Origin: Gammaproteobacteria bacterium
GTDB taxonomy: Bacteria > Pseudomonadota > Gammaproteobacteria > JABABF01
Direction: 5' to 3'
Length of the DNA: 64,000 nt
Assembly: GCA_965237805.1 (NCBI GenBank)
Contig: OZ250153.1
Span: 384,001 to 448,000 of the forward strand
Below the pieces are notes generated by a model. The model saw only the letters and a program-made list of their open reading frames with translations. It was not told the DNA's origin and made no database searches. Shown here in pieces: positions 33,546 to 34,878 of the stretch. Within the stretch, counting starts at the first letter, position 1; the number at the start of each line of letters is the position of its first letter. Both the position numbers and the translations under genes were made by a program.

Positions 33546-34878
33546 TCACGATGTGCCAAAAGGATGGTGCCGAATCAGGCACTGGGAGCGCTCCGGACCG
33601 GTCGAGTACTCATTATCAATTTATTCATTTTTATTTATCCCCTACGATGTCGATAGGCACACCGACGAACTCCTCGATGCGCGCCAGATAATCGCGTGCG
33701 GCCGACGGCAGCGATGCCATGCTGTCGGCGGCTGCGGTCGAGGCAGCAGGCCAGCCCGGCCAGTCCTCGAACACCGGGCGCAGAGGCGCACCGCCCAGCA
33801 CCACTGACTCGGCATCGTTTTCGTAGCCCACACCCAGCCGCAATGTCGACAGGCCGTCGAGCACATCCAACTTGCTCAGCGCCAAGCCGTCGACACTGTT
33901 GATCTGCACCGTGCGGCGCAAGGCCACCAAGTCCAACCAGCCGCAACGCCGCCGACGGCCAGTGGTGGCCCCGTATTCCTCACCGCGCTCGAAGAGATGT
34001 GTGCCCACCGCGCTGTCGGCATCCAATTCGGTGGGGAATGGACCGTCGCCGACCCGTGTGGCATAGGCCTTGGCTACCCCTAACACCGCATCGAAATGGC
34101 GCGGCCCACAACCGCTGCCGCTAGCCGCATTGCCAGCCGTGACGCTGGAGGAAGTGACATAGGGATAGGTGCCGTGATCTAAGTCCAACAGCGCCCCCTG
34201 CGCCCCCTCGAACAACACCGCCGCCCCGTCGGCGCGCAACTCGATCAGCATTTGCGGGATATCGGCCAAGAGCGGCAACAGCCATTCCCGCTGCGCCAAG
34301 CACTGTTTGCCCAATTCCTCGACATCCAGTGCTGGCTCACCGTAATAGGATGTCAGCAGAAAATTGTGGTATTCCACCAGCTTGGTGAGCTGCTCAAGCA
34401 AACGCTTAGGATCGCTCAAGTCGCCCAAGCGCAGAGCGCGGCGTGCGGCGCGATCCTCATAAGCTGGCCCGATGCCGCGGCCGGTGGTGCCAATCGCCGT
34501 GCCACCACCACACCGCTCACGGGCCCGATCCAGCGCCTCGTGCGTGGGCAACAGCAGCGGGCAGGCCGGGCTCAGACGCAGGCGCTGTCGCAGGCCGGTC
34601 ACACCACTGTCTTCCAGCGCGTGCAGCTCTGCACCTAGAGCATCCGGCGACACCACCACCCCACTGCCGATCAGACCGAGCACACCGGCATGGAGAATGC
34701 CCGAGGGAATGAGATGCAACACCAGGCGCTGCCCCCCCACCACCAAGGTGTGACCAGCGTTGTGCCCACCTTGGAATCGCACCACAGCGGCGACTCGCTC
34801 AGCGGTGATGGCATCGATCAACTTGCCCTTGCCCTCATCACCCCACTGCAAGCCGAGCGCGACGACAAAGCGACTCAT
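33546..34878 (-). pseudogene. purA: Adenylosuccinate synthetase interrupted near its 3' end by a 37-bp insert (real or artefact)
   Basis: [43 protein letters not shown]. The ORF stops at 33631, but the conserved tail STGPERSQCLIRHHPF follows at 33605-33546 in another frame. Confidence 0.85.

Follow-up and report, generated by a model that had tools for sequence, protein, structure and literature searches.

A 37-nucleotide, stop-rich insert in an assembled purA gene is probably a one-off templated copy of community DNA

Introduction

How can the only purA gene of a bacterial genome come to be broken, 19 codons short of its end, by 37 extra bases that hold stop codons in every frame? The question is raised by a stretch of 64,000 nucleotides (hereafter the window, to whose positions all coordinates refer unless stated otherwise) of a 1.73-Mb genome assembled as a single contig of 1,725,584 bases. 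An earlier note on this DNA, made from the letters alone, had offered three origins for the extra bases, namely a very recent knockout, a removable or bypassed element, and an assembly chimera.

The answer has practical consequences. A gene caller would mark purA as truncated in this reference genome, and a metabolic reconstruction built on it would score adenine auxotrophy in error, the more readily because no gene for adenine salvage was found. A fixed and conserved insert would have made purA a candidate case of translational bypass in a housekeeping gene of a cell. If the insert were maintained and purA expressed across it, this would be, if true, the first time that a coding gap is seen in an essential housekeeping gene on the chromosome of a free-living bacterium.

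Materials and methods

The gene purA lies on the minus strand of the window. Public sequencing runs were consulted as Logan contigs, and only two runs (here X1 and X2; one sample, one study) hold this stretch, with 0.85 and 0.84 of 197 sampled words. They are taken to be DNA runs because their longest contigs reach 138 and 275 kb. Their contigs were compared with the assembly over window positions 33250-34050, and the sample is possibly not the one from which the assembly was made. Further split genes were sought with a heuristic, homology-free scan, of a kind that would miss inserts not low in GC: 354 isolated low-GC stretches gave 164 frame pairs by an ORF test and 48 rows after a GC3 filter, of which the 10 with no nearby start codon were inspected.

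Results

The order of genes at the locus (hflK, hflC, a hisZ-like gene, purA) is the gammaproteobacterial norm, and purA is convergent with tRNA-Leu(CAG) at 33344-33430 (Table 1). By score the assembled product belongs to the PurA family (Pfam PF00709), with 519.4 bits against a cut-off of 402 for NCBIfam NF002223 (adenylosuccinate synthase) and 456.1 bits against a cut-off of 395.55 for TIGR00184; it covers only positions 4-413 of the 430 of the former profile, and the complete in-frame C-terminal STGP tail is absent from the assembly. QWGDEGKGK, which we take to be the P-loop GDEGKGK motif, and SKLDVLDG, presumably the (N/T/S)KxD guanine motif, both occur in the product and do not vary across an alignment of six sequences. 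Among the matches listed, 119 other proteins have 425-454 aa, and the 415-aa product of the window forms a singleton cluster. The longest purA ORF opens with a GTG, 24 nt before the conserved ATG (window 34875-34902), where it overlaps the end of the preceding hisZ-like gene; homologues begin at the ATG (MSRFVV...).

Table 1. Features of the purA/tRNA-Leu locus, in positions of the window
Feature	Position	Strand	Basis or remark
Promoter-like site for tRNA-Leu, TTGACA-18-TAGAGT, overlapping GAGTACTCA at 33329-33337	33303..33337	+	Promoter and motif search
tRNA-Leu(CAG)	33344..33430	+	ARAGORN; Rfam tRNA, 54 bits
87-nt spacer between the 21-nt copies	33431..33517	.	No other copy in the genome, no Rfam match
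Duplicate of the final 21 nt of tRNA-Leu, an att-like relic	33518..33538	+	Repeat search: a pair with 100% identity, 108 nt apart
Stranded purA tail, 19 codons + TGA, STGPERSQCLIRHHPFGTS*	33546..33605	-	Translation; the same tail is unbroken in homologues
37 extra bases (33606-33642 in the earlier note)	33607..33643	-	Low GC, 5 stops in the purA frame; skipped exactly by read-derived contigs
purA as assembled, 415 codons, ATG (MSRFVV...) to premature TAA at 33633-33631	33631..34878	-	ORF list, profile and solved-chain alignments

In the assembly the purA frame runs into the insert and ends there as ...VPIDIVGDK*, and the 60 nt beyond the insert, which translate to the missing tail, are encoded 37 nt beyond the body and in a different frame. 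The 37-mer is present on the minus strand exactly as it had been quoted. Its removal does restore the tail, as was claimed, and the string given for the restored end was wrong only in missing its last three residues, GTS. Measured against the uninterrupted allele of the read-derived contigs, the extra bases are shifted by one base from the position first given, with the result that the uninterrupted codon is GTC and not GTA, Val either way. The foreign composition and the wealth of stops hold as well. The insert has a GC content of 24% vs 61.6% for the genome, a 40-nt window on it has 0.25 vs 0.58-0.78 in the body of purA, and, read in the sense of purA, it stops that gene's frame five times and each remaining frame once. 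Taken alone, and by its letters, the insert would look like a Shine-Dalgarno-type GGGGA followed by a spacer, an ATG and seven codons.

The segment cut off by the insert is one that homologues keep. In five of five fetched homologues (P0002, P0003, P0004, P0008 and P0034; identities 87, 75, 78, 60 and 60%) the stretch VPI(D/E)(I/L)(V/I)-STGP(E/D)R... is unbroken, and among the loci of relatives searched with the PurA C-terminus (n=11), the four that hold the gene end all read through. The tail of the same-genus genome G001 ends in ...VPIELISTGPERGQCLIERHPFATD*, and, by manual count, 9 of the 19 tail codons in the window differ silently from it and 5 alter the residue. The assembled product aligns with solved PurA chains up to residue 414/415 of 431/432, and from this position of the break it is plausible that the truncation would impair the enzyme. 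We take the C-terminal segment at the break to contact the guanine base of GTP; in the literature on Ser414 and Asp333 of adenylosuccinate synthetase no statement of a C-terminal guanine contact was found, and an entry in the reference list of PMC7952092, Kang et al. 1994, reportedly concerns Asp333.

The genome has one copy of purA, and purB is intact. A check of purine salvage, which the earlier note had recommended, returned neither apt nor any other purine phosphoribosyltransferase, the genes of the phosphoribosyltransferase fold being genome-wide only prs, pyrE and purF. Therefore purA should be indispensable, and de novo synthesis seems to be the organism's sole source of purines. A search for the ATP/ADP translocase family PF03219 gave no match, but as the control genomes were without a match too, this result carries no weight with regard to nucleotide import.

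With up to 3 mismatches allowed, the insert matches the window once, and 100 shuffles yielded no match at all. In the whole genome it is a single copy, the next-best blastn match having 13 nt, and none of 60 genomes of relatives carries it at up to 3 mismatches. Exact searches, in which records of this very genome were possibly excluded, gave 0 matches for the 37-mer in genome_contigs, metagenome_contigs and viral_contigs, for 40 nt of the purA tail in metagenome_contigs, and, in genome_contigs, for 37 nt from the 87-nt spacer; the 26-nt core of the insert had 0 exact matches in viral_contigs. Rfam (E <=1) finds only the tRNA in 33200-33800. A fold of the 121 nt at 33570-33690 has z = +0.29, 120 of 200 shuffles are as stable, and the insert is unpaired in the centroid. 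In the scan for split genes, seven of the ten inspected cases were crossed by a much longer ORF in another frame or strand and three resembled ordinary gene boundaries; purA alone stood out.

The contigs of the public runs present the same gene without the insert. One contig of X1 (record 6; 1688 nt, depth 33.3) and one of X2 (record 11; 12110 nt, depth 19) join 33606 directly to 33644, the first with 0 other letters and the second with 1, at 33736; both cover 33546-33606 and 33644-34050 as adjacent letters of one record, and the joint skips the 37 letters unambiguously (0 letters counted as fitting both forms). The junction reads Ile-Val-Ser-Thr, with GTC as the Val codon and the two parts of purA in frame. 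The pepP/tRNA contigs of the same organism have depths of 38.2 and 33.2 in X1 and 13.3 in X2, and because the depth of the purA contigs is like that of these neighbours, the uninterrupted allele stands at the full depth of the organism. No contig of X1 or X2 supports either junction of purA with the insert; contigs drop rare variants, and therefore the absence or the frequency of an allele with the insert is not to be read from them. Across the bins that hold the insert, the depth was 28.1 and 34.3 in X1, vs about 29 and 35 computed from the listed records, and 8.0 in X2, vs about 8.2; by this manual arithmetic on depth bins there is no coverage of the insert beyond the listed records.

The same contigs part from the assembly elsewhere too. 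Just past the purA stop the full-depth purA contig departs into 190 unlike letters, and a second, diverged contig, described below, passes from the 21-nt repeat straight into tRNA sequence where the assembly has its 87-nt spacer. Because the contigs diverge at these two further points nearby, the assembly is not simply the main haplotype of the sample, and there could be a sister population in which the insert is frequent. The stretch 33439-33492 has no contig in X1 or X2, and 33493-33519 has next to none, a gap to which we attach no meaning; two further sets, X3 and X4, gave no contig here.

The letters of the insert do occur in the community, in other DNA. The 40 letters of 33605-33644, which are the 37 with one and two flanking letters, were found with 0 mismatches in another contig of each run (X1 record 5, depth 20.7; X2 record 10, depth 3.8), where both flanks are unlike the window. 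The call for other copies of the 37-mer was accordingly answered in two ways, by none in the genome or the 60 relatives and by this contig in both public runs. On the same contig, 551 letters downstream of the 40-mer, lies a diverged purA end, with 4 other letters of 71 over 33644-33714 and 12 of 88 over 33518-33605. It is uninterrupted at the site of the insert, where one letter is substituted and Val is kept, and its tail frame is still open: by manual reading, the nine differences listed for the tail change six residues, leave one codon silent and shift the stop forward by a codon. The middle part of purA, which is conserved, is missing from its expected place in this contig, which we therefore read as a partial purA 3' end beside tRNA-Leu after foreign low-GC DNA. 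The assembled genome was searched for two 30-letter flanks of the unlike DNA and, with up to 3 mismatches allowed, contains neither. From this we infer an element between purA and tRNA-Leu in the population of the sample, absent from the assembly; the 37-mer would be a part of it, and by its letters it would be the start of a gene, with a ribosome-binding site and eight codons.

The att-like repeat which the earlier note had placed about 70 bp from the insert is real: the last 21 nt of tRNA-Leu (33410-33430) are duplicated 68 nt from the insert, and this nearness is probably relevant. As in elements that target tRNA genes, there is a direct repeat of the tRNA 3' end; the bracketed 87 nt hold no integrase and no ORF of at least 30 aa wholly inside. 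G001 is without the duplicated repeat, and its tRNA begins 9 nt after the purA stop. In the diverged contig of the public runs the 21-nt repeat passes straight into tRNA sequence without the 87-nt spacer, and therefore the duplication of the tRNA 3' end is also variable in the community. The duplicated end looks like the scar of an element formerly integrated at the tRNA, and the purA/tRNA-Leu locus shows that foreign DNA enters and leaves here in this lineage.

Discussion

There is a good case, from our analysis, for a one-off templated insertion, carried either by a rare or very recent dead allele or by a library or assembly chimera. The 37 bases would be a short copy of foreign low-GC DNA with no role in making PurA. 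Their donor would lie in the same community, with a second, partial purA 3' end by tRNA-Leu about 0.6 kb downstream of it, and would probably belong to an element inserted at the purA/tRNA-Leu site. The copy would have been pasted between two adjacent bases of purA, none of which was lost or duplicated. Besides the copied bases the donor and purA junctions have 1 and 2 extra letters in common, which is only a few times above chance; the exact paste together with these common letters is read as a brief switch of a polymerase to another template and back. Such a switch may have happened in a cell lineage, where it would have produced a dead or crippled purA as a rare or very recent allele, or at the bench or in the assembler, which would leave a chimeric read or a switched haplotype path. 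Under both options the prevailing allele of the population would be the uninterrupted one, encoding full-length PurA. We know of no assembler or polisher step that pastes exactly 37 bases from 0.6 kb off between adjacent bases, and this makes a real molecule, be it from a cell lineage or a chimeric read, likelier than an error of computation alone. A sequencing adapter was considered as the source and set aside, the 37-mer being unlike any that we recall.

Two of the three origins first offered, the recent knockout and the assembly chimera, fit these observations. The removable or bypassed element does not: conservation in relatives, RNA structure, an adjacent stop, repeats at the ends and a nearby recombinase were all looked for and not found. 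It would be logical to regard the finding as an ordinary one, an interrupted purA that would be either a dead-end allele or a flaw of one assembly, and not as a new way of reading genes.

Templated insertions of this kind, made by template switching and joined by microhomology, are known as short contiguous copies without loss of the target and with one or two letters common at the joins, all of which we see here, but the donor of the present one lies outside the assembled genome and is seen only in contigs of the community. Haplotype-switch errors of metagenome assemblies offer another likeness, in that a closed genome of an uncultured organism disagrees, at a locus of variable structure, with the main k-mer path of the reads; such errors are usually collapsed or switched haplotypes or homopolymer indels, however, and a precise paste of 37 nt would be unusual among them. 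Relics of tRNA-integrated elements are similar in that the 3' end of tRNA-Leu recurs as a 21-nt duplicate at a distance of 87 nt from the gene, and in the foreign low-GC DNA of the read contigs, while at the assembled locus neither integrase nor cargo is left and the 37-nt insert sits outside the pair of repeats, inside purA. Two familiar classes were tried and rejected: a transposable element or MITE, as there is no target-site duplication, no terminal inverted repeat and no further copy, and a self-splicing intron or other known RNA element, given the Rfam result. A length of 37 nt is far below the size of group I and group II introns.

It is unlikely, in our estimation, that the insert is instead fixed in the population of the assembled organism, as a fresh pseudogene or as a gene for a 415-residue enzyme in which GDK replaces the last 19 residues. 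A cell of this sort would have to make do with residual activity, or obtain adenine nucleotides or nucleosides from its surroundings. The insert does stand in a closed, single-contig assembly, which at two more nearby points differs from the read contigs and may represent a sister population; the donor DNA exists in the community, and the tail, with mostly silent changes among those that separate it from G001, is without decay, as expected if the event is very recent. Two things speak against an allele with the insert that is both real and prevailing, namely the full depth of the uninterrupted form, found in both runs, and the likely indispensability of purA; as neither apt nor another purine phosphoribosyltransferase was found, loss of PurA should kill the cell or cost it dearly. 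The segment cut off is kept, moreover, in all the homologues and relatives' gene ends compared and in the solved enzymes.

We give little credit to any reading in which the insert is a real and maintained feature of one lineage, with purA expressed across it by a 22-nt hop or by precise removal from DNA or RNA; this we consider highly improbable. One version would be a switch at the level of DNA, by which the 37 bases are precisely inserted and removed and purA is turned off and on in a part of the population. Both an interrupted form (in the assembly) and an exactly uninterrupted one (in the contigs) exist, with flanks otherwise identical, yet the latter is the ancestral state seen in relatives, its flanks are adjacent with no target duplication, and the insert has neither terminal inverted or direct repeats nor a second copy. 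The tyrosine recombinase genes (PF00589) of the genome are only two, both far from the locus, at about 327 kb and 1484 kb (G000:C1:327300-327809 and 1483894-1484400), and we take them to be XerC/D. We know of no switch that inserts a fixed 37-mer without such features, and consider this version very improbable.

Programmed translational bypass is very unlikely too, and we hold it for the least probable of the readings. The ribosome would take off at GAU (insert bases 4-6) or at the next AAA, with UAA in the A site, slide over 22 nt and land on a second GAU (bases 26-28) or on the following AAU, to give ...VGD-NEY-STGP.... The sequence GAUAA does occur twice, with its second copy in the frame of the tail, whose only stop in the insert (bases 20-22) lies upstream, and purA appears indispensable; the matched pair is weak, however, in a sequence that is AT-rich and repetitive, where a repeated 5-mer among 37 bases counts for little. 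The first GAU is followed by AAA and only then by UAA, and AAA is without an identical landing codon in the right frame. Neither an adjacent stop nor a stem-loop at or after the take-off was found, the insert is missing from all 60 relatives and all four gene ends are uninterrupted, with no sign of selection, gap-free DNA stands at full depth, and the scan of low-GC stretches gave no second gene split in this way. Coding gaps of 50 nt are known from T4 gene 60 (PMC7026636), and the likeness to that gene, its relatives and the yeast mitochondrial 'byp' elements lies in a short, stop-bearing, out-of-frame insert with an intact downstream frame and an identical codon pair. Unlike T4 gene 60 as described in PMC7026636, the purA insert is without take-off stem-loop, adjacent stop and conservation, and its gap-free DNA is the main allele.

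Some observations on the surroundings may be added. At the insert junction the earlier note had pointed to a 9-mer, GAGTACTCA, at 33604, which does recur at 33329 and is found three times in the whole genome (both strands). We considered it as a recombination signal and discarded it; because the second copy lies in the promoter-like -10 region of tRNA-Leu, where G001 has a near-identical sequence, its recurrence is read as chance, and at the insert the 9-mer includes two letters of purA itself. The promoter-like match is sigma-70-like (10/12), and its -10 region holds an 8-bp palindrome, GAGTACTC, which also arises at the junction of the insert and purA. On a larger scale the genome, at 61.6% GC, has 264 runs with at most 7 G+C per 30 nt, many of them in kilobase-sized islands, and low-GC stretches of the window itself are found, for instance, at 1-900 and 11000-12350. 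For a genome of 1.7 Mb these islands point to much acquired DNA, and there are only two tyrosine recombinase genes despite so many of them.
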